From an uncultured Chlamydiae bacterium (lineage in GTDB: Bacteria; Chlamydiota; Chlamydiia; Chlamydiales; Parachlamydiaceae), in the NCBI GenBank assembly GCA_963754655.1, contig CAVWGN010000001.1, forward strand, positions 512,001 through 576,000: DNA of 64,000 nucleotides, written 5' to 3'. The notes below the pieces were generated by a model. That model had not been told where the DNA came from. It was given only the letters and a program-made list of their open reading frames with translations, and made no database searches. The stretch's first letter is position 1; every line of letters begins with the position of its first letter. The translations under genes were made by a program, and so were the position numbers. Below are positions 1 through 59,604 of this stretch, piece after piece.

Positions 1-446
1 ATTAAAATGAATATTCATGATATTTGTTTATAATTTTTAAAAATTAAACTGATTGTCTTATTTATGTTTATTAATGTCAATAAGTACATGATCTTGTGTC
101 AGAACGACGCATGAAAATCCATTTACACTGGCTTAAAATGTTTGACGGGCTATATGACGCATTCAGTCGCCACGCCGCTTCGCTCTGGGCTCTAGGTAAG
201 GGGTTGTTAACCCACCGTTCGGTCGCCCTCCGGGCTTGGTCACGGTGGGCTAGTAACAGTCGTCCTACGGACTCTCGCGGCAATTTAGAACCGATTGAAT
301 GTTAGAAAAGGCGTTTTGATAATGCCGCGAAAGTTCGTAGGACGACTGTTACTAGGGCGTGTCTGAAAAACATTATCAAAAAGTGATATAAATGATAATA
401 CACGCAATTATAACTACTCCTCTATATTTTTTTCTAACTCATAACG

Positions 447-995
447 GGTGTTTTACTAAATATTTGACACTTGCAGCCCTTCAGGCTGCATCACACAACT
501 CACTCATACCCTGGTCTAGGGGGTTCATTTTGTGCAAAAAATGGGCTTTATTTTTCACAATAAGTGGCATAGTTGAATTGAAGGTCGCATGTTTATGCCG
601 TCCTTTCAGGACTCGATGTCTTTTGATAGAACCCAGGCCTCCGCTTCGCTGCGACCTGGGCTGTAACATGGCGGCCCTTCAGGCCTTAACAAGAGATGTT
701 TAAGTCCCTCTTCTATAGTCCCTAAATCATTTTTTTGTTAAGGCCTGAAGGGCCGCCATGTTACAGCCCAGGTCGCAGCGAAGCGGAGGCCTGGGTTCTA
801 TCAAAAAGACATCGAGTCCTGAAAGGACGGCATAAACATACGACCTTCAATTTAACTATGCCACTTATTGTGAAAAATAAAGCCCATTTTTTGCACAAAA
901 TGAACCCCCCAGACCAGGGCGTTGCTCTGGGTATGAGTGAGTTGTGTCATGCAGCCTGAAGGGTTGCCAGAGTGTCAAATTTTTAGTAAAATACC
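447..995. repeat. Palindromic element family F, expanded copy carrying element B
   Basis: Arms GGTGTTTTACTAAATATTTGACAC...CTCATACCC / GGGTATGAG...GTGTCAAATTTTTAGTAAAATACC. Minimal relative at 59522-59604, half copy at 39097-39140. Confidence 0.8.
512..916. repeat. Palindromic element family B (REPIN-like, about 400 bp), copy 1
   Basis: Near-perfect inverted arms of about 175 bp around a spacer of about 45 bp. Arms contain REP-like hairpins GGCCTGAAGGGCC, CCCAGGTCGCAGCGAAGCGGAGGCCTGGG and GTCCTGAAAGGAC. Copies at 23662 and 41515. Confidence 0.95.
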
Positions 996-1260
996 AGTCA
1001 TGAAATACATCCTATGGGCCCTACAACTATTATTTATATCATAAATAATCTTTTTCAAACACGCCCTAGCCCACCGTGACCGAGCCCGGAGGGCGACCGA
1101 ACGGTGGGTTAACAACCCCCTCACCTAGAGCCCAGAGCGAAGCGGCGTGGCGACTGAATGCGTCATATGGCCCGCCATACATTTTAAGGCCATGTGATTG
1201 GAGTATGGCATCAAAGCCAGATGGGATTTTAATGCGTCGTCTCTGAATCTTGTGTCTATT

Positions 1261-6204: not shown

Positions 6205-7509
6205 TTAAGAATCATTTTGAAGAGTGATGACAAAGGTGTTTTGCTGCACTCCTTGAAATCGCTGACCAAAGGATGGGAATAAAAGGGTTGGAATTTTGCT
6301 TTCCACATACGCTTTGTTTTTGCTGCTTTCGCTTTGAACTGTTTCCACTTTCACTATTCTTCCCGTTCTGTCCAACGTGAGTTTAATTTTAACAGCTCCG
6401 TAATCGGGAAAACGCAATGCCATTTTTAAGCGGTAGGCAACCTCATCGCTATAACTGATTTCCTTCGTTCCCCATTCTCCTGAGCTTCCTGTTTCTCCCC
6501 ATGGTAAAGCATCTACTTGTAAGACTCCCAATTCTTGAGGCAGGGCAGCAGCTTCTAAGTTTACCGATGAGGAAGAAGAGCTCATCTTATCGCGTGTTTC
6601 GCCCATTTTTGCAAGAGTTTCTTTGGCTTTAGCTAACAGAGCTTGTTCCTTCTGCCGGGCAGCTTCTTGAGCAGCTGCAATTTCTTGTTGTCGTTTTTTT
6701 TCAGCTTCTGCTATCTCTTGTTGTCGCTTTTTCTCTGCTTCAGCTATCTCTTGTTGCCGCTTTTTCTCTGCTTCTGCTCGCTCTTTTTGTCGCTTTTTCT
6801 CCGCTTCCGCTTGCTCGCGCTGCTGCTTTTTTTCGGCTTCTTCTTTTAGTTTAGATTTTGTTGCCTCAGTTTTAGGGGGTTTTTTAGCAGCTTCAATGGG
6901 TTTTTTGACAGGAGCTGATGTTTTATTCGTTGTTTTTGGAGTTTCTTGAAGCATAGGTTTAGGAGAAGGGGCTTTTGGTTGAGGTTTATTTTCCGTTTTA
7001 ATGGGAAGAGGAGGGAAAACAGGAAGGGGAGGAGGGATAGTAGGAGTCGAAATAGGAGCTGCCTCTTGCATAGAGGCAACTACCTGAGATTCTTCTTTCT
7101 TAATAGGCACTTCTTGAATAGGAAAGGCCTCTTCTTTTTCCAAAGAAATATCAGGTTGAGGTGAGGTTTCTTCTTTAAGAGGCTGAGAAATCGCAGGGGG
7201 TTCTATTTTCGGCGGTTCGATAGGAGAATGAAGAGTTGGCATTGGTGCAGCAACGGGCTGGACAGTAGGAGTAGACGCTGGCATTTGAACGACCGCTGAT
7301 TCAAAGGGTTTGAGGCGAACTGTTTGAACAATGATTTTAGAGCGTGGTTTTGGAGCAGGGGGAGCAGGATTCCAAAAGGTGCCCAACCCTAATAACACAA
7401 GATGTATAGCGATGACGATCAGCACAATGGTAAACAGCTGAGAGTGATAGCGAGGAGAAGAAAAAGTAGAAGGAGAAGGAGGGATATGATGGGGCATGTG
7501 CTTCGACAC
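6205..7509 (-). CDS. tolA: TolA/TonB-like inner-membrane-anchored protein
   Basis: Single TM helix with His (IAIHLVLL), Pro-rich linker, tandem AEKKRQQEIAE repeats and TonB_C-like end (VKIKLTLDRTGRI). Lies between tolR and tolB. Confidence 0.8.
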   Translation of the reverse strand: MSKHMPHHIPPSPSTFSSPRYHSQLFTIVLIVIAIHLVLLGLGTFWNPAPPAPKPRSKIIVQTVRLKPFESAVVQMPASTPTVQPVAAPMPTLHSPIEPPKIEPPAISQPLKEETSPQPDISLEKEEAFPIQEVPIKKEESQVVASMQEAAPISTPTIPPPLPVFPPLPIKTENKPQPKAPSPKPMLQETPKTTNKTSAPVKKPIEAAKKPPKTEATKSKLKEEAEKKQQREQAEAEKKRQKERAEAEKKRQQEIAEAEKKRQQEIAEAEKKRQQEIAAAQEAARQKEQALLAKAKETLAKMGETRDKMSSSSSSVNLEAAALPQELGVLQVDALPWGETGSSGEWGTKEISYSDEVAYRLKMALRFPDYGAVKIKLTLDRTGRIVKVETVQSESSKNKAYVESKIPTLLFPSFGQRFQGVQQNTFVITLQNDS

Positions 7510-8152: not shown

Positions 8153-8457
8153 TAAGCGACGCATTCAGTCGCCCGCCGCTTCGCTCTGGGCTCTGGATAA
8201 GCGGTTGTTTAACCCACCGTTCGGTCGCCCTCCGGGCTCGGTCACGGTGGGCTAGTAACAGTCGTCCTCCGGACTCTAGCGGCATTATCAAAACGTCTTG
8301 TCTAACATTCAATCTTTTCTACATTGCCGCTAGAGTCCGGAGGACGACTGTTACTAGCCCACCGTGACCGAGCCCGGAGGGCGACCGAACGGTGGGTTAA
8401 ACAACCGCTTATCCAGAGCCCAGAGCGAAGCGGCGCGGCGACTGAATGCGTCGCTTA
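8153..8457. repeat. Palindromic element family A, copy 2 (uninterrupted), between tolQ and tolR
   Basis: Near-perfect inverted arms of about 130 bp. Spacer is the reverse complement of the copy 1 spacer. Degenerate outer arms to about 8095 and 8512. Partial extra arm at 8042-8078. Confidence 0.95.
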
Positions 8458-8646
8458 GCCTAGCTTCCACTCTTAGCCTAAGACGTATGCGACCAAACGG
8501 TGGCACCCCCGGGTTCTATGGCCTAATGCCTGTGTGACCAACAAAAAAAAGCGGCGACCACATCGTCGCATAGCTCAACCTCAACTCTTGCTTAACACTT
8601 AGGCTCATGCTCATGTTGCTAAATGTTTTGCAAATACATCTTAGTG

Positions 8647-19212: not shown

Positions 19213-19378
19213 GAGTTTATATTTTTAGCAGATCGATAAGAAATGGTAGGGCGGCGGTAGCCACTTGCAGTGGGAAGCCCCGCATTCCGTTCGCAAGCTC
19301 GCTTCATACGGGGCTTCCCACTGAAAGCGGCTACCGCCGCCCTACCATTTCTTATCGATCTGCTAAAAATATAAACTC
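19213..19378. repeat. 166-bp palindrome with GTAG-REP-like core (family H)
   Basis: GAGTTTATATTTTTAGCAGATCGATAAGAAATGGTAGGGCGGCGGTAGCC...GGCTACCGCCGCCCTACCATTTCTTATCGATCTGCTAAAAATATAAACTC. Confidence 0.9.
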
Positions 19379-23661: not shown

Positions 23662-24060
23662 GGTTAGGGTGTTCATTTTGTGCAAAAATGAGCTTTATTT
23701 TTCACAATAATTGGCATAGTTGAATTGAAGGTCGCATGTTTATGCCGTCCTTTCAGGACTCGATGTCTTTTTGATAGAACCCAGGCCTCCGCTTCGCTGC
23801 GACCTGGGCTGTAACATGACGGCCCTTCAGGACTTAACAAGAGATGTTTAAGTCCCTCTTCTATAGTCCCTAAATCATCTTTTGTTAGGCCTGAAGGGCC
23901 GTCATGTTACAGCCCAGGTCGCAGCGAAGCGGAGGCCTGGGTTCTATCAAAAAGACATCGAGTCCTGAAAGGACGGCATAAACATGCGACCTTCAATTCA
24001 ACTATGCCAATTATTGTGAAAAATAAGGCTCATTTTTTGCACAAAATGAACACCCTAGCC
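23662..24060. repeat. Palindromic element family B, copy 2
   Basis: Near-identical to 512-916. Flanked by CCAG on both sides (23658-23661, 24061-24064). Confidence 0.95.
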
Positions 24061-24067
24061 CCAGGAT

Positions 24068-25911
24068 GGGATGAGAAAACGAGGGCTAAAAACCGATTTT
24101 TACACAGCTAAAATCGCTAACGGTTCTGGTTCCAATTTATTTGATTTTATAGTAAGTTCAATGACATCTGAATTTACTTTGCCCAAACTCAAAACTTCTT
24201 TTCGTTTTGCTAAATCCGTTTTGCCAATCCATGTTTCTTCCCATTCCTCCAACATTTCGACTGACACCGTTTCTAAAGCCTCTTGTAAGATATCACAATT
24301 ATTTTCCCCAACCATTCCTGCAAGACTTAGGATACTTTTAGTTATACTAGATGTCGCTTTGGTTCTCTCTACTATTATTTTCTGTCTTCCTATCAAAGAC
24401 TCTATTCCTTCGCTGCTTCCCACTAACACCTGTCCCTTGGATAGCACTCTACCTTCCTGTTTCAAAAAATAAAAAATCTCTTTTGCCAAATGTAGTGCTT
24501 CTGGTTTCAAACTTCTAAAGTGAAGTCTTGCTTTAAGAAAAAAAGTCGCATAGCTTCGTCTATGAAGACCTTCAGTTCTTACTAAATGCCTTGCCAAACG
24601 AATGATTTCTATCATCTGAGCATATTTTTCAATGACTTCTTCGAAATCGACTATCCAACCAGCTTTATCTTTTAATCTATTTATATCTAAATGGGGAATC
24701 GTCTCTTGCATTTGAAGAAGGTTTAAAATATCTTGTAGCCAATCAATTAAAATATCAGCATTCATGAATCGCGCTTTTTCTCTTTGTTTGGGAGGGCTCA
24801 AAAAAGCCTCTGGACTCTGTTTTGTCTTTTGTTTTGTATCTGTAATCAATTGAATTATGTGTTTCCAAGTATCATCTTTTTCCAGTTCCTTTTTTAATAG
24901 AATTGCTAGTTTATGGACCACATCATAGGTGTTTATTGTTTTTTCATGGTTTTGGCAATATAGTCTTACACCTTTATTTACATCACTGCCATGATCTGCC
25001 ACTATCTGCAGAAATGGGCCAATTTTTTCCGATATTTCTTCTAAAACATGCGCAACTTTTTCACCAGTTGATGAATTCATGGGTTGTAGCGCTAGTGGTT
25101 GGAAATCTTCATGATGAATATCAAAGCTGCCCCTTTTTTCAAACTTACTTTGTAATGTACTTAATTGAACTCCAAGAACTATTAAGCACTTTTGGTAACC
25201 AGCTTGAACTTTAAAATCAACAAGGATAATCCAATCTGAAGCCTTTTCCTTAGCCTTTATAAGCTTGTAAAGCCCATATCGTAAAAACCACAATTCGACG
25301 CTTTTCCATGAAGGCTGGAAATTGAAATATTTAAATATTGGAATGTTACAACTCTGCATGGAGATGAAAATTCGCTGAATCGCTCTAAATGCTATTGCAG
25401 CTAATGCAAGTGAAATCACAAAAAATATAAATAATATAGGATATTGATGTCGAGCGACCCTTCGATTGTTGCTAATTTCTTGCTCAATTATTGCACAAGC
25501 TTTTTTTTTAATTCATCAATTTGCTTGTCTTTGATTTTACTTTTCTCTTCCACCTCTTCTAATCTCGACTGAAGGCATTTTATCTGTTTGTTTAATGCCA
25601 AGATATTATCTTGTTCCTTTTGTAGCCTTTCTCCTAATCGTTTCTTATCAGTCATTAGAGCTTGAATCTTAGTTCTTTTTTCTGCGTTTCTTTGCTTCCA
25701 TTCATCACGACTTTCCTGGTAATGCTTCACTTGTTTACGTATATCTGAAGGACGCTCATGCTTTTGAGTGCTTTTTGAATCCATTTTATGCCTCATCTAA
25801 TTTTGAGCAATCAATTATAAAAGCCTCTTTTTAAAAAGCCAAGCGAATTTAAAATAGGAGGAAAAGCGTTCTAATAATTAGTTGTTAAATATTTTTTTGT
25901 TTTCTCATCCC
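24068..25911 (-). mobile_element. Insertion sequence, probably Mutator-like (IS256/ISLre2/ISKra4-related), 1844 bp
   Basis: TIRs GGGATGAGAAAAC / GTTTTCTCATCCC. 11-bp TSD AGCCCCAGGAT at 24057-24067 and 25912-25922. Confidence 0.9.
24100..25796 (-). CDS. DDE transposase in two ORFs (25488-25796 coiled coil, 24100-25419 catalytic) joinable by a -1 shift at A9G
   Basis: Motifs ILVD, VADHGSD, YDVVHKLA (DxxH), GSSEGIESLIG. The -1 frame from TTAAAAAAAAAG (25500-25511) is open into ORF2. Confidence 0.8.
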
Positions 25912-25930
25912 AGCCCCAGGATCGGTTTAT

Positions 25931-31226: not shown

Positions 31227-32063
31227 ATGACCCAAGGTGATAAATCCAGTTATACGGATAAACAACAAAGGCAAGCTGAACATATTGAAGAAGGATATGA
31301 AAACAAAGGAGTAGATGAAAAAGAAGCTGAAAAGCGTGCGTGGGCTACTGTAAATAAAGTTTCCGGTGGCGGAAAAAAGAGTGGTTCTGGACGCAAGCGT
31401 TCTGCTTCATCAACTGGAGTGGTTAAAAAGACCGGCGTGAAGCAATCAAGCAGTGCCCAAAATAGTGCTGGCGGTGCGAAAAAAGCAACAGGCGGTGCGA
31501 AAAAAGCAACAAGTGGTGCGAAAAAAACGACTGGTGGTGCTAAAAAAGCGACTAGTAGTACCCAAAAAAGTACGGGCGGTGCTAAAAAAGCGACTAGTAG
31601 TAGTGCCCAAAAGAGCACGGGCGGTGCGAAAAAGGCGACTAGCGGTACGAGAAAAACAACTAGTTCTAGAAAAAGTACTGATGATGCGAAAAAAAGCTCA
31701 GCCAGTAATAAAAAGAGTACTGGTGGTGCAAAAAAATCAACTAGTGCAAACAAAAGTGCGGGTGTGAAAAAGTCGACTAGTACCAAAAGTCGCACATCTT
31801 CCACCAAACAAAGTTCTTCTAGAAGCGAGGGCGCTCGTACAGGTGAAAAGAAGTCGGCGAGCTCTGCAAAAAAGAAGTCAACAAGCTCTGCAAAGAAGCC
31901 CGCTCCGGCTAAAAAGACAGTTTCAAGAAGTGCAACAAGAAGCTCAGCTAGCAACTCAAGAGGAGCTGCTTCTAAGAGCCGTCCTAAAACTGCAACAAGA
32001 AAAACCACAGGTAAGTCTAAACCAAAGAGTAAAAGCCTATTAGGTTCTATTTTCTCTTTTTAA
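31227..32063 (+). CDS. Basic histone-H1-like repeat protein with conserved N-terminal GDKSSYTDKQ domain
   Basis: N-terminus GDKSSYTDKQQRQAEHIEEGYE...EAEKRAWATVNK, then GGAKKAT/STGGAKK repeats; very K/S/T/A/G-rich. AAGGAGGA RBS 6 nt before ATG 31227. Confidence 0.8.
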   Translation: MTQGDKSSYTDKQQRQAEHIEEGYENKGVDEKEAEKRAWATVNKVSGGGKKSGSGRKRSASSTGVVKKTGVKQSSSAQNSAGGAKKATGGAKKATSGAKKTTGGAKKATSSTQKSTGGAKKATSSSAQKSTGGAKKATSGTRKTTSSRKSTDDAKKSSASNKKSTGGAKKSTSANKSAGVKKSTSTKSRTSSTKQSSSRSEGARTGEKKSASSAKKKSTSSAKKPAPAKKTVSRSATRSSASNSRGAASKSRPKTATRKTTGKSKPKSKSLLGSIFSF

Positions 32064-41379: not shown

Positions 41380-41825
41380 CACGTTTTTAGGAACAGTCCT
41401 AATACTCCATTACATTAGTTTTTACTTATTGTGACTGCTTCAAAGCCCGGGGTTGGGATGAGATGATTCTCTTGTAGTCCTTCAGACTACATGATGAGGG
41501 CTAATCTAACCCGGGGTTAGGTGTTCATTTTGTGCAAAAAATGAGCTTTATTTTTCACAATAATTGGCATAGTTAAATTGAAGGTCGCATGTTTATGCCG
41601 TCCTTTCAGGACTCGATGTCTTTTTGATAGAACCCAGGCCTCCGCTTCGCTGCGACCTGGGCTGTAACATAACGGCCCTTCAGGCCTTAACAAAAAGATG
41701 ATTTAGGGACTATAGAAGAGGGATTTAAACATCTCTTGTTAAGGCCTGAAGGGCCGTTATGTTACAGCCCAGGTCGCAGCGAAGCGGAGGCCTGGGTTCT
41801 ATCAAAAAGACATCGAGTCCTGAAA

Positions 41826-43287
41826 GGGACAATTGCAGAATTATTTAGCGTGTTATACTGCGATTTTTTTTCTGTCAATTGTACCTGAGATCGAAAAGAA
41901 TCGATTCTAGACGACTAAGTTTTAATGAAAAAAAAACACTTTTATGCAAAACATTCGAATTTTTTGAATTTTTTTAAAAATTGATCTAATTTTGGCAGGG
42001 GGTAACGTAAGAAGATACTGTCAATCTTTGAAATTTAATCGATCTTTAGGAAGTGAATTTCAATAACATCATAGCGGCCGCTGTTAATACTCCAAATAAT
42101 GCATGGCAAGAGACTTTCTGATATCCTCTGTAATATATCCTATGTCCTCCACAATAGTCCTTAAAGAATGCATTAAAGGATTCTTTGGGAAATCGCTCTG
42201 CGTACCTCTTTTCTTCAGCTGTTTTAAAATTTAAAAGAGTTTTTCTTTTTTTCTCTTCCATTTTTGCCTTTTTTTGAGCTGCACTTCGCGAACACTGATC
42301 GATAATTGGTATATGATTAAGGGATCGGCTAAATTCCTTGATTTCTGGATAATCGTAAGCTGCATCCATTAAATCGTACAAATTAGTTACTACCTTGCTT
42401 GTTTTTAGAGATAAAGGAATTGCAACTTCACAGTCATTACACGATGCAGATGTGACAATTGCAGCCAAAGGGACTCCATTATCATCAACATTAGTATGCA
42501 ACTTATAGCCTTTCCAAAAAATGTGAAATCCCTGAGGATTTCTTTTCATGCCTTTGTCACATGCTATAGGAAGATGTTCTACCATTTTTCGAAGATCTGG
42601 TTCATTCAACTGCTGTTGACGTAGATTTGGTTCTCCAGCACTTTTCATTCTTCTTCTTTCTTTGTCTTTTTCTTTTCGACGTGTTTTTGCACATGGTTTT
42701 TTTAATGATTTTTCACGTGCTTCTAAGGGTGTAGAATCTGTTATCACATGTCCTATGATCTCTCCCTTGTAAAATTCTTTAACCAATGCTTGGTGAACCC
42801 TATCCGGAAGGGTTATTTGGCTAAATTCTTTGAAAGCTCTAGAAAATTTAGATTCAGAAGGAATTTTATGATTTGCCTCCCAACCACAAATAATCCTCAA
42901 TTGTTCATCCTGGTTTAGCAGGCGAATAATTTGTTTAGTGTAAGGTTGTTTTAGGACTACTTTTGCGATAAAACTTCTAGCCATTGCGATGCGATCTTTT
43001 GGTGGCCTTCCTAATTTGAAGGATCGCGGAATATGACTTTCAATACGAACAAGTTCCAGAATTGATACTAATTTTTTATACTCAGGGCAGAGTTCATGAG
43101 TTCGTTTGATTAAATCAGGAAAAAGAGTAGACTGTACGTTATTCCACATTTGCGATAATTTTTCTCTGAACATTTTTCGGTTCCTTGTATAGTTTAAGAC
43201 GGTTTTTCTACATCTAGACTATATTAAGGAGCCTTTTTTTGAAAGTGGTAAATTAAAATAATTTATTGTTTATTCTGCAATTGTCCC
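41826..43287 (-). mobile_element. IS5/IS1182-like insertion sequence, 1462 bp
   Basis: Perfect 16-bp TIR GGGACAATTGCAGAAT. 5-bp TSD TGAAA at 41821-41825 and 43288-43292, in the loop of the GTCCTGAAAGGAC hairpin. Confidence 0.93.
42046..43173 (-). CDS. DDE transposase (DDE_Tnp_1-like)
   Basis: Motifs PSESKFSRAF, DSTPLEARE, WKGYKLH, DAAYD, RYAERFPKE. Confidence 0.92.
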   Translation of the reverse strand: MFREKLSQMWNNVQSTLFPDLIKRTHELCPEYKKLVSILELVRIESHIPRSFKLGRPPKDRIAMARSFIAKVVLKQPYTKQIIRLLNQDEQLRIICGWEANHKIPSESKFSRAFKEFSQITLPDRVHQALVKEFYKGEIIGHVITDSTPLEAREKSLKKPCAKTRRKEKDKERRRMKSAGEPNLRQQQLNEPDLRKMVEHLPIACDKGMKRNPQGFHIFWKGYKLHTNVDDNGVPLAAIVTSASCNDCEVAIPLSLKTSKVVTNLYDLMDAAYDYPEIKEFSRSLNHIPIIDQCSRSAAQKKAKMEEKKRKTLLNFKTAEEKRYAERFPKESFNAFFKDYCGGHRIYYRGYQKVSCHALFGVLTAAAMMLLKFTS

Positions 43288-43485
43288 TGAAAGGACGGCA
43301 TAAACATGCGACCTTCAATTTAACTATGCCAATTATTGTGAAAAATAAAGCTCATTTTTTGCACAAAATGAACACCCTAACCCCGGGCTTTCAAGCAGTC
43401 CAATAGGTAAAAACTCATGTAATGGAGTATAGTCTATTAAAACTTCCTCATGCATAAGACGCAAAAACTCAGGTAAACAGCAATA

Positions 43486-51793: not shown

Positions 51794-52164
51794 GTTGCCC
51801 CCTTATGTTAAGTAGAAAAGTACCAGGATTCTAATAAAAATTAAAGAATTGGTTATGTTAGCTCGGCAGTCACTGCCGCTATATCCTAGCATTCTAAAAT
51901 GCAAATCATTTGCCCTAAAAATTAATAATTAATCAGTGAGTGAAAATTTAGCTTGAATTTATTAAACGGCAGGGCTTGCAATATAAGCATGCAAGAGATG
52001 CGGTTAGGCTAAGCGACGCTTTCAGTCGCCCGCCGCTTCGCTCTGGGCTCTAGGTGAGGGGTTGAGGACCCCACCGTTCGGTTGCCCTCCGGGCTCGGTC
52101 ACGGTGGGCTAGTAACAGTCGTCCTACGGACTCTAGCGGCAATGTAGAAACCATGGGATGCTAG

Positions 52165-53002
52165 GGAGCGTACCTAAAAGATTAACCATTGTATAATACA
52201 AGCGATCGTCAACATTCCTGCATAATTTTGAGCTTTCATTTCGTATCTTATTCCAATACGCCTAAATCGTTTTATAAACTGAAAAAAATTTTCTACCAAG
52301 CAACGCTCTCTGTAGATATGTTTATCATGTTCAATTAGTTCAGCTCTTGATACTTTGCTGGGTATGACTGCTTGACTTCCCATCTTTTCTATAAAATTTC
52401 TGATTTCATTTGAGTCGTAAGCTTTATCAGCTATAACATTTTTTGGATTTTTTCCACTGAGTAAAAGCTTCATTTGAGTGCTCTCGTGTACTTGACCTTC
52501 TGTCAAGATAAAATCAATACAACGACCTAATCCATCTGTTACTGCATGAATTTTTGTGGTTGTTCCGGCCCTTGATTTTCCCATGGCTTCTTCGGCTTTT
52601 TTTTTATCCTACAAGCATCTTGATGCGCTTCAACAATTGAGCTGTCTACAGAGTAATTTTCTTCGTCAATTTCATCTTTTAAAGCTTGCCAAATCGTTTG
52701 CCAGATTCCAGCCTTTGTCCATCGATTAAAGCGATTATAACATGTGCTCCAAGGACCATACTTGGGTGGTAGATCCCTCCAAGCGGCTCCTGTTCTTAAA
52801 ATCCAAATAATGCCTTCTAAAATCTTACGATGAGGCCGACTTGGTCTGCCCCAATATCCTCGTTCTTTTGGCAATAAAGGTTTTATTTTTATCCATCTTT
52901 CATTAGTTAATACTATCCTACTCATTCAAATTTCCCCCTTGTTTTATCAGAGAAAATTATAAATCATAAGAGTTATTATTTTAAATCTTTTAGGTACGTT
53001 CC
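52165..53002 (-). mobile_element. IS5-family (IS427-like) insertion sequence, 838 bp
   Basis: TIR GGAGCGTACCTAAAA / TTTTAGGTACGTTCC. CTAG on both sides (52161-52164, 53003-53006). Confidence 0.93.
52174..52925 (-). CDS. IS5-family transposase, two ORFs joined by a -1 frameshift at A9G
   Basis: OrfA WILRTGAAWRDLP...VDSS and OrfB TKIH, ADKAYD, RCLVENFF. ATA AAA AAA AAG shifts into KKAEEAMGKSR. Confidence 0.92.
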
Positions 53003-53006
53003 CTAG

Positions 53007-53149
53007 TACTCAACCACACTAGTTTTTGCCCATTGGAACCGGCTTCAAAGCTCCGCGGTTGAATTGGCGTAGCAATATGGATCCACTTACGCTAATTCAA
53101 CCGGGGCTTTAAAGTAACCCCAATAGGCAGAAACTCATGTGGTTGAGTA
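53007..53149. mobile_element. MITE-like palindrome family C, copy 2 (empty, 143 bp)
   Basis: TACTCAACCAC...GTGGTTGAGTA with CTAG on both sides. Confidence 0.85.
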
Positions 53150-53211
53150 CTAGTCAAGGCGTTTTGATAATGCCGCAAGAGTCCGGAGGTCGACTGTTAA
53201 TAGCCCACCGT

Positions 53212-53869
53212 CGGGACTTAACAAAGAACTGTTTTTGGGCTTGATATTCGTCGAGTCAATTTAACAATACACCGCCTGTAACAGGATTTAAAGGCATAAT
53301 TCCCGAAAATGACGCGAAAAACATCAAAGCCCAAAACAGTTCTTTGTTAAGTCCCGGCCATAGGCTAGGAACGAAATGCTTCTGGCAAACTCCAGAAGCT
53401 AAATTTGTCGCTCAAGCGGCGTTAGCCGCGCATGGATAGTAGCCGTGGGTGTAGGCGAAGCCGGAACCCACGGTGTATGGTAAAAAAATGAAGCCACGTT
53501 AGTGGCGTAGGAAATGTGATTGTGGAGCAATGTTTATTTAAACGAATGCTACGCCACTAACGTGGCTCAAATTTGTTTTGAGGGTAACCGTGGGTTTCGG
53601 CTTGCGCCTACACCCACGGCTACTATCCATGCGCGGCTAACGCCGCTCGTCGCTGAGGGAAAGGATATGGATCAAGCAACATTGCAAAAACAAAGATAAA
53701 AATTCCGATTACTTAGCCATATGCCGGGACTTAACAAAGAACTGTTTTGGGCTTGATAATTTTTCGCGTCATTTTCGAGAAATATGCCTCTAAAGCCTGT
53801 TATAGGTGGGGCGTTGTTAAATTGATACGAAGAATATCAAGCCCAAAAACAGTTCTTTGTTAAGTCCCG
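53212..53869. mobile_element. Composite non-coding element: two inverted 145-bp MITEs (D) flanking REP-like palindrome E
   Basis: D copies at 53212-53356 and 53725-53869 (ends CGGGACTTAACAAAGAACTGTTTT). E at 53415-53647. 9-bp TSD GCCCACCGT at 53203-53211 and 53870-53878. Confidence 0.88.
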
Positions 53870-54127
53870 GCCCACCGTGACCGAGCCCGGAGGGCGACCG
53901 AACGGTGGGTCCACACCCCCTCTCATAGAGCCTAGAGCAAAGCGGCGAGCGGCGACTGAATGCGTTGCATCATCTGCTTCCTTTTTCGCTTGATGGCGTA
54001 GCTCTGATAGGCTCTAAAAACTTATTATTCTTTATTTTATTTTAATATATTATTTATGTAATCTTATTTGCGTTAATTTACATTTTGAATAATTTAATTT
54101 ACCAAACAGTTTTGAGGAAAGGAAAAC

Positions 54128-59521: not shown

Positions 59522-59604
59522 CCAGGATGTTTTTACTAAAAAAATCTGACAATTGCAGCCTTTCAGGCTGCAATTGTCAAATTTTTTTAGTAAAAACATC
59601 CTGG
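59522..59604. repeat. Palindromic element family F, minimal 83-bp copy; may act as a terminator
   Basis: CCAGGATGTTTTTACTAAAAAAATCTGACAATTGCAGCCT-TTC-AGGCTGCAATTGTCAAATTTTTTTAGTAAAAACATCCTGG. Confidence 0.9.

Follow-up and report, generated by a model that had tools for sequence, protein, structure and literature searches.

How several long palindromes, none of them coding, come to lie one inside another is the question raised by a locus near the beginning of the 64,000-nt stretch of DNA analysed here (the window), which belongs to the genome of an uncultured Chlamydiae bacterium of the family Parachlamydiaceae. The locus, at 104-1240, is a true nest of non-coding mobile repeats of approximately 1.15 kb, and it is likely to be a stack of non-autonomous elements from at least three transposition systems, nested through target words that the repeats themselves carry. 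In what follows, plain coordinates refer to the window, and those with the prefix C1: refer to the genome contig C1.

Five layers can be told apart in the nest, which are, from the outermost inwards, palindrome A, element G (between a pair of CTAG tetranucleotides), the arms of a repeat F, and the two parts of palindrome B, namely a shell and a doublet of inverted repetitive extragenic palindromic (REP) units. The layering is reflected in a series of nested inverted repeats at 104-120/1224-1240, 118-203/1117-1202 (90%), 200-253/1066-1119 (98%), 352-376/1045-1069, 439-511/929-1003 (85-88%), 509-624/804-919 (97%) and 621-692/735-806 (100%). Folded as single-stranded DNA, positions 99-1247 form one branched hairpin with a minimum free energy of -528.8 kcal/mol, a value that, at more than 1000 bases, stands without a shuffle control or z-score. 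The longest open reading frame (ORF) within the nest has 103 codons for amino acids, and none of its five ORFs of at least 60 aa has a match in a Pfam search. The initial annotation, made from the sequence of the window, had described a non-coding nest of four levels in which A is split by G at a duplicated CTAG, and had pointed to separate copies of A, F and B elsewhere in the window. The nest, its lack of coding content, the split of A and the separate copies (A at 8153-8462, B at about 23662-24065 and F at 59522-59603) all stood, and the count changed to five layers, B being two: a 49-nt shell on each side and the REP doublet.

The outermost junction is one at which an insertion can be read directly. 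Palindrome A consists of a left half (104-355, with no strand assigned) and a right half (1066-1240); the core arms lie at 156-253 and 1066-1164, a central sub-palindrome at 250-355 (arms 250-293 and 312-355), and the outer shell at 104-155 and 1165-1240. Element G (356-1065) separates the halves, and a CTAG stands on each side of it, at 352-355 and 1066-1069, as the left and right copies of a 4-bp target duplication. In the solo copy of A at 8153-8462, which reads ...CGACTGTTACTAGCCCACCGTGACC..., CTAG occurs just once (8354-8357) between the sequences that surround it in the nest; G in A is therefore an insertion that has both a 4-bp duplication and an empty-site comparator.

The origin of G can likewise be traced. 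Its terminal inverted repeats, GGCGTGTCTGAAAAAC, lie at 356-371 and 1050-1065, and its two ends (356-445 and 996-1065) are derived from an 840-bp insertion sequence, to the left end of which 356-438 is 87% identical and to the right end of which 1004-1065 is 92% identical. The 840-bp element is present in six full copies in the genome and carries two overlapping frames of IS4/IS5 type, one with an N-terminal DUF4096 (96.8 bits) and one with DDE_Tnp_1 (60 bits), an arrangement that places it in the IS5 family. All six full copies are bordered by 4-bp duplications of CCAG or CTGG, and each of the three complete copies of G has its own duplication as well, namely CTAG in the window, CTGG at C1:90266-91131 and CCAG at C1:1042413-1044935. 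Because its ends match the 840-bp element and the duplications agree, G is a miniature derivative of this IS5-family insertion sequence with the target CYAG; its ends match an autonomous element, it makes the same 4-bp duplication and it encodes no transposase, as is characteristic of a miniature inverted-repeat transposable element (MITE). The copy of G at C1:1042413 breaks what appears to be a compact hairpin of a further repeat, H5.

The interior of G is not a remnant of its parent, but a set of further repeats. Next to the G left end lies the F left arm (446-507; GGGTGTTTTACTAAA...GCAGCCCTTCAGGCTGC...CACTCAT), followed by the 9-mer ACCCTGGTC (508-516), palindrome B (517-911), the 9-mer GACCAGGGC (912-920) and the F right arm (921-995); the second 9-mer forms the first stem of a small F hairpin, CCAGGG-CGTTG-CTCTGG, at 913-932. 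The G-type left end occurs at five loci in the genome and at each of them runs straight into an F left arm, while one more locus holds the right half alone, that is, an F right arm with a G right end. B or part of B lies beside the F arm at all six loci, half of which are complete, the other three being broken up by further insertion sequences. Because B adjoins the F arm throughout, G, F and B travel as one unit, to which F is integral in every G-type copy, and the inner levels were therefore probably inherited rather than built at the locus of the nest. The small F hairpin lies to the right of B in the window and to the left of H3 (a 144-bp element described below) plus B at C1:90266; since its position differs among copies of G, the interior has been rearranged since.

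Palindrome B (395 bp in the nest) ends in TAGGG...CCCCA, the family consensus being TAGGGTG...CACCCTA. It consists of the 49-nt shells (517-565 and 863-911) and, between them, a core of roughly 300 bp (about 566-862) formed by a head-to-head pair of units of approximately 100 nt. The genome holds 172 merged loci of B, of which 46 have a length of 395-430 bp and 42 have both termini as judged by pattern. The core unit is approximately twice as common as the shell (314 core arms vs 182 shell arms in a BLAST search of the genome); 238 of the 314 core arms form 119 head-to-head doublets, around which the shell is present on both sides in 50 cases, on one side in 33 and on neither side in 36.

The core is linked to a small transposase gene. 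The Y1 transposase domain PF01797 has 10 matches in the genome (nine over the cut-off) and seven full-length genes, comprising one classical IS200 type (144.7 bits) and six that resemble REP-associated tyrosine transposases (RAYTs), two of which are near-identical, so that five distinct RAYT-like lineages exist in one genome. One of these genes, C1:395753-396241 (PF01797 at 88.3 bits vs a cut-off of 23), is single-copy, its nearest paralogues being at most 49% identical, and its protein of 163 aa passes the IS200 model NF033573 (64.4 vs 55). It is flanked on both sides by B sequence: from its stop codon onwards run about 100 nt of the B unit (254-333 genome matches by BLAST), and on its 5' side stands an inverse partial B unit (211-218 matches). 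A low-copy Y1 partner of the HUH class within the IS200 superfamily, inverted flanking repeats, and abundant doublets with compensatory change are among the features by which a system of RAYTs and their REP doublets (REPINs) is recognized, and the B core displays these. Based on these associations, the B core is predicted to be the REP of the Y1 transposase gene C1:395753-396241. Separately, another copy of B in the window (41510-43387) is split into the parts 41510-41827 and 43286-43387 by an insertion sequence of approximately 1.46 kb, whose ORF at 42046-43173 (minus strand, 375 aa) encodes DDE_Tnp_1 and DUF772 domains and belongs to a protein cluster of 11 members in the genome.

The linkage between the B core and the gene recurs in other genomes. 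Homologues of the B-linked gene are present in 28 of 61 related genomes (this genome counted) and B-core-like DNA in 14 of the 61, with multiple copies in seven others and with occurrences in other genera. A B-core-like REP abuts the orthologue in all three genomes that have 56-72% identical orthologues with intact flanks, and beside none of seven homologues that are 45-49% identical. The core also resembles a catalogued RNA motif: both of its units in the nest, at 632-686 (plus strand) and, as the mirror unit, at 741-795 (minus strand), match the Rfam family Acido-Lenti-1 (RF01687) at 37.1 bits against a gathering score of 37. Among the 150 candidates scored in the genome, 148 match this family, 11 of them over the threshold and most at 36.4 bits.

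For a wider comparison, loci around relatives of the gene were collected from public genomes (20 of 21 found by protein, one partial match being left out). An Acido-Lenti-1 match lies within 600 nt of the gene at 10 of the 20 loci, including six of the seven chlamydial ones; five loci stand at or above the gathering score, four have the arrangement of minus strand, gene and plus strand, scores at the loci of relatives reach 39-52 bits, and weaker matches occur at three Bacteroidota loci and one Acidobacteriota locus. As a control, 19 loci (61 kb) around other Y1 genes were searched, in which, apart from the B-linked gene, the motif gave no more than a weak match beside one homologue of 45% identity. 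The catalogue entry for Acido-Lenti-1 (Weinberg 2010, PMC2864571) makes it a probable small RNA from the Acidobacteria and the Lentisphaerae, and preprints of 2026, one of them from October, still have it as 'of unknown function'. Its two-hairpin consensus matches the B core, but what is catalogued as an RNA behaves here as the REP of a RAYT-like clade. On present evidence, this abundant Rfam family would thus be the REP of a Y1 transposase clade and not a small-RNA gene, and the finding may account for an orphan RNA motif in the databases, in that the innermost hairpins of the nest are of the kind found on both sides of a small transposase gene.

Other RAYT-like genes of the genome have repeats of their own. 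The near-identical pair, at C1:2542100 and C1:2544230, is flanked by the hairpin GTAGTCTGAAAGACTAC (70-98 matches by BLAST), and the gene at C1:2802165 by a unit with 64-70 matches. A distance of 2 kb separates these two genes in the region C1:2542100-2548287, a third copy, which is partial, is close by, and the GTAG-type hairpin GTAGTCTGAAAGACTAC stands beside each; the gene at C1:2939315-2939749 lies within a long palindrome whose arms are low-copy (about five matches). For palindrome A, a full copy is found 87 nt downstream of the RAYT-like gene C1:2429356-2429802, with a piece of the A centre nearer to it, at 22 nt; on the upstream side of this gene, there is no A sequence. As judged from this neighbourhood, A may be a candidate repeat of that gene.

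A third group of elements makes 9-bp duplications. An insertion sequence of 1.85 kb with the ends TGGGATGAG...CTCATCCCA is present in 10 full copies, nine of which have a perfect 9-bp direct duplication, and its targets are GCCCWGGGC or near variants, located in A, in the B core, in H5 or beside B; its protein has no sequence match in Pfam, NCBIfam or PDB. One full copy (24067-25913) directly follows the B copy in the window stretch 23662-25916 with the 9-bp duplication GCCCCAGGA. Similarly, the 144-bp element H3, with ends CGGGACTTAAC, gives 14 of 62 pairings with 8 or 9 of 9 direct-repeat positions, and in the 655-bp H3-X-H3 composites, the outer 9-mers match. The terminal sequences, when compared, are TGGGATG for the 1.85-kb insertion sequence, CGGGACT for H3, TAGGGTG for B, and CAGGGTG or TAGGGTA for F, the common part being only 5-7 nt; the TGGGATG and YAGGG ends presumably resemble Ac-type ends. 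For F, a strict pattern yields only two usable copies, the flanks of which match at 7 and 8 of 9 positions at small offsets, and the F copy at C1:696222-696751 has, as read by eye, the flanks AGATAAAAC/AGATAAAAT.

Both target words lie within the repeats. GCCCWGGGC occurs 92 times in the genome against 3.9 times expected from base composition, and 85 of the 92 occurrences are in repeats; within the F and H5 units, it supplies both stems of a small hairpin (CCCWGGG-loop-CCCWGGG). CYAG, in turn, is present at the A junctions and in the B-core stem, and five of the six full copies of the 840-bp element lie at one B-core site, in either orientation. In a further copy of A (51993-53947), a 655-bp H3-X-H3 composite at 53212-53869 with the 9-bp duplication GCCCACCGT directly adjoins the CTAG that was used by G in the nest, and this composite's site is struck in several other copies of A, such as those at C1:345294 and C1:890161.

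Nesting is, in consequence, far from random in this genome, which comprises 3.12 Mb plus 35 kb and has 17.7% of its bases in 14-mers present at least five times. Both flanks are repetitive for 38 of 42 copies of B, 7 of 10 of the 1.85-kb insertion sequence, 6 of 6 of the 840-bp element and 18 of 26 of A, compared with 14% of random positions. Elements come to lie inside elements because the repeats carry the target words, and what is preferred is a short palindromic word in a hairpin stem, either CYAG or GCCCWGGGC. The initial annotation had proposed that families insert preferentially into one another's hairpins, and had pointed to RAYT and DDE transposases as partners. Nesting above the random level was borne out, as were the separateness of the families and the presence of partners of the expected type (RAYT-like Y1 genes flanked by repeats, and DDE insertion sequences with ends matching G); the families have no fixed order, F arms being found around A elsewhere, for example at C1:217052-217581 and C1:696222-696751. 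The notion of hairpins as structures being the target drew no support, the preference being for a short word. Its reading of the levels as insertions into one another holds for G in A, with duplication and empty-site comparator, and is not borne out for F and B, which were probably inherited with G, the flanks of B being mostly mirror images.

These flanks deserve closer attention. In the nest, the 9-mers ACCCTGGTC and GACCAGGGC on the two sides of B can pair at 8 of 9 positions and, read in direct orientation, agree at 5 of 9, so that no target duplication of B is seen there. Among the 42 copies of B in the genome, 13 have flanking 9-mers that are exact inverted repeats of each other, and in 22 the inverted match covers at least 8 positions; the central base is A or T on both flanks in 18 cases and the same base in 9 of the 18. 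Within a copy, the two arms vary in concert. For B, the arms diverge by 0.76% inside a copy vs 2.0% between copies; 16 of the variants private to one copy are symmetric and 24 affect one arm, the B of the window having four private symmetric changes, and over all variant occurrences, 78 are symmetric and 75 one-armed. For A, the core arms diverge by 1.6% inside a copy and by 9.9% between copies, and the shells by 13% (median 6.7%) inside and 34% between. The flanks of B are compatible with an original insertion, because a direct GCCCAGGGC...GCCCAGGGC duplication would become a mirror pair if one arm were copied onto its partner or if pairing were selected for. The strong co-variation of the arms recommends this genome for work on how symmetry is maintained in long palindromes. 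As to the outermost arms of A (104-155 and 1165-1240), they are 90-94% palindromic, and the shells of other copies of A differ from them, each being internally symmetric; the outer 50 nt on each side of the copy in the nest are palindromic with each other, yet a genome search gave no other match for them.

Taken together, at least three transposition systems would be at work in the proposed sequence of events. REP- or REPIN-type palindromes tied to RAYT-like Y1 (HUH) transposases would constitute one; the second would be represented by G, which would be moved in trans by the DDE transposase of the 840-bp element with 4-bp duplications at CYAG; and the third would be the 9-bp-duplication family at GCCCWGGGC, comprising the 1.85-kb insertion sequence with TGGGATG ends and H3, to which the B shell and F, with similar YAGGGTG ends, might be related. 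As palindromic repeats contain both target words in their stems and junctions, new insertions would land in old repeats, and the resulting composites would then move as units. G would have carried F and B already when it was inserted into the CTAG of an older copy of A, and the mirror flanks of B would have arisen either by the copying of one arm onto its partner or through selection for pairing. The anatomy, the insertion of G into A, the parent of G, the linkage of REP and RAYT-like gene, the enrichment of the target word in repeats and the co-variation of the arms are shown directly, whereas the order of events and the enzymes that move B, F and A are matters that we infer.

Several observations weigh against this explanation. 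The protein of C1:395753 misses the NCBIfam RAYT model NF047646 (22.6 bits vs a cut-off of 80), and the RAYT-like proteins of the genome in general reach only about 22-25 bits against 80 on this REP-associated tyrosine transposase model, passing the IS200 model in its place. The B core is found in none of three same-genus genomes, which is unlike the vertical inheritance of classical REPINs, and A adjoins its RAYT-like gene on one side only, a single weak match (E = 0.001) being seen among six orthologue loci. Of the 42 copies of B, just one stands between perfectly matching direct 9-mers, and 10 reach a direct match of at least 8 of 9 positions; because direct duplication is so rare, B cannot be shown to insert like the 9-bp family, which duplicates its target directly at GCCCWGGGC. 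Compact F hairpins number only 3 among 58 plus-strand arm motifs, and compact empty hosts of H1, H2 or H5 (or of H3 or H4) were not found by short-arm patterns, which are not exhaustive. Furthermore, the copies are not independent: many copies of B share host flanks, so that 38 of 42 overstates the number of events, as do the flank counts generally, because composites are copied as units, and the five 840-bp copies at the one B-core site may be duplicates rather than separate hits. The comparison with sister genomes is uninformative, since in the three same-genus genomes, the left flank has no syntenic match, the orthologous upstream regions have no comparable palindrome, and the right-flank gene has only 67-75% nucleotide identity. 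Public read runs, finally, do not contain the locus, the best share of sampled words being 0.18 in a soil metagenome.

Alternatively, the layers may not be insertions at all; the palindromes would grow and renew themselves by mirror copying. DNA that is single-stranded in the course of replication or transposition would fold into a hairpin, of which one arm, in some cases together with some of its flank, would be the template for its partner; each new shell would then lie outside the older ones, and the two arms would be kept symmetric. Such a process would explain why cargo-free hosts are rare or absent, why the flanks of B are more often inverted than direct, why the outer A shell of the nest is palindromic and matches nothing else in the genome, why 16 of the 40 private B variants are symmetric, and why the A shells are 34% apart between copies and at a median of 6.7% within them; the compact F at 59522-59603, an 82-bp hairpin that BLAST with F does not pick up, looks as though a single long F arm had doubled back where it has a local hairpin. 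Mirror copying is nonetheless unlikely as the origin of the layers, since the clean direct duplications at G, at the 1.85-kb insertion sequence and at H3 speak for insertion, and since the left and right neighbours of B are in many cases unlike each other (H1 and H4, respectively, are one such pair), which mirror copying does not predict. Moreover, compensatory change under selection for the hairpin has already been described for REPINs, in the part of PMC3116915 that concerns it, and symmetry therefore needs no mirror synthesis. A bolder version, in which multi-layer palindromes are built outward and kept symmetric by hairpin-templated mirror copying, the enzyme being the RAYT-like clade with an Acido-Lenti-1 REP common to Chlamydiota, Bacteroidota and Acidobacteriota, is one that we would put forward only tentatively and regard as doubtful.

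The palindromes might also be elements with a host function, such as structured small RNAs of the Acido-Lenti-1 kind, terminators or protein-binding sites, which are kept by selection and whose nesting is incidental. That the B core reaches the Rfam gathering score in the window (37.1 vs 37) and that hairpin pairing is preserved via compensatory change would suit this idea, which we consider very improbable in view of the 314 core arms in the genome, of Acido-Lenti-1 matches that mostly score 36.4, just below the cut-off, of the absence of the motif from three same-genus genomes, and of its occurrence in both orientations, in mirror pairs, inside transposon shells and beside a transposase gene in several phyla. 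Least credible of all is an assembly artefact produced from collapsed or chained repeats. The genome is rich in near-identical repeats and no public read set covers the locus, but the junctions are precise and coherent (a CTAG duplication, and ends of insertion-sequence type with a parent element), the G, F and B architecture recurs elsewhere with its own differences and other duplications, and the four private changes in both arms of the window B would not be given by the chaining of other copies. Three read runs yielded short contigs on repeated parts only, plus an identical 303-bp contig on the flanking gene (1344-1646); one read contig joins 282 to 1080 (with a 30-nt side and 88% likeness) and probably stems from another copy of A. 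The soil-metagenome run X1 has a 303-bp contig identical to 1344-1646, and it also contains contigs of the repeat families.

With the stack of mobile elements retained as the preferred explanation, the locus combines elements of known kinds, namely REP/RAYT-like repeats, miniature elements derived from insertion sequences, and insertion sequences that target REPs. Systems of REP/RAYT type, which Nunvar and colleagues reportedly studied in 2010, are represented by the REPINs of Pseudomonas fluorescens and by the REPs and bacterial interspersed mosaic elements (BIMEs) of E. coli with their TnpA-REP. They share with the present genome a Y1 HUH gene of one or two copies per lineage flanked by inverted hairpin repeats, as well as hundreds of repeats that mostly form inverted doublets as long hairpins, which are kept by compensatory changes; the preservation of the hairpin by such changes is noted in the relevant portion of Bertels & Rainey 2011 (PMC3116915). 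On the other hand, the proteins here fall below the NCBIfam RAYT model, the repeat is larger (a unit of about 100 nt with three hairpins, and approximately 300 bp for a doublet), one genome harbours five RAYT-like lineages side by side, additional shells of transposon-like character surround the doublets, and the B core is missing from the three same-genus genomes but present in other genera. A multi-lineage REP/RAYT-like system is hereby placed in environmental chlamydiae; a literature search found no report of REPINs or RAYTs in chlamydiae.

As is usual for IS5-derived miniature elements, G keeps only the ends of its parent, with the same terminal repeats and the same 4-bp CYAG duplication, and is non-coding; it differs from them in that its interior has not simply been deleted, but replaced by F and B, passengers which are themselves repeats of mobile type. 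Nested MITEs are known from plants, where miniature elements insert preferentially into one another since their target sites lie inside them; here, the setting is a bacterial genome, with another mix of enzymes and much longer palindromes. Insertion sequences that target REP sequences have been described, as the pertinent part of Tobes & Pareja 2006 (PMC1525189) indicates, and the 840-bp and 1.85-kb elements similarly land in REP hairpin stems, but the target words here are defined (CYAG, and GCCCWGGGC with its 9-bp duplication), and miniature elements use the same targets, which leads to chains and to nests of several layers. For Anabaena variabilis and Halothiobacillus neapolitanus, the passages on these repeats in Di Nocera et al. 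2013 (PMC3733652) report longer palindromes that enclose REP dimers, and there, as here, REP-free target palindromes were not found; in contrast to the present nest, those passages describe one extra layer and no parent insertion sequences, and Chlamydiae are named in that paper only within the title of a cited work. What sets the chlamydial locus apart is its depth of nesting, its host and the tie between Acido-Lenti-1 and a transposase clade. It also offers a reason, at the level of sequence, for the piling up of bacterial repeats, in that the short palindromic words at which two transposases insert are almost confined to the repeats.

Other repeats accompany these families. The genome has approximately 12 copies of an IS607-type element (a serine recombinase with a TnpB-like OrfB), an IS256-type element in 8 copies, a second IS5-type element in about 20 copies, and large families of repeat-containing proteins. 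In the window, tandem repeats lie in apparent coding regions at 31428-31745 (21 nt, 10 copies) and 6644-6841 (33 nt, 5 copies), and a palindrome of another family, with 73-nt arms that are 96% complementary, lies at 19213-19378.

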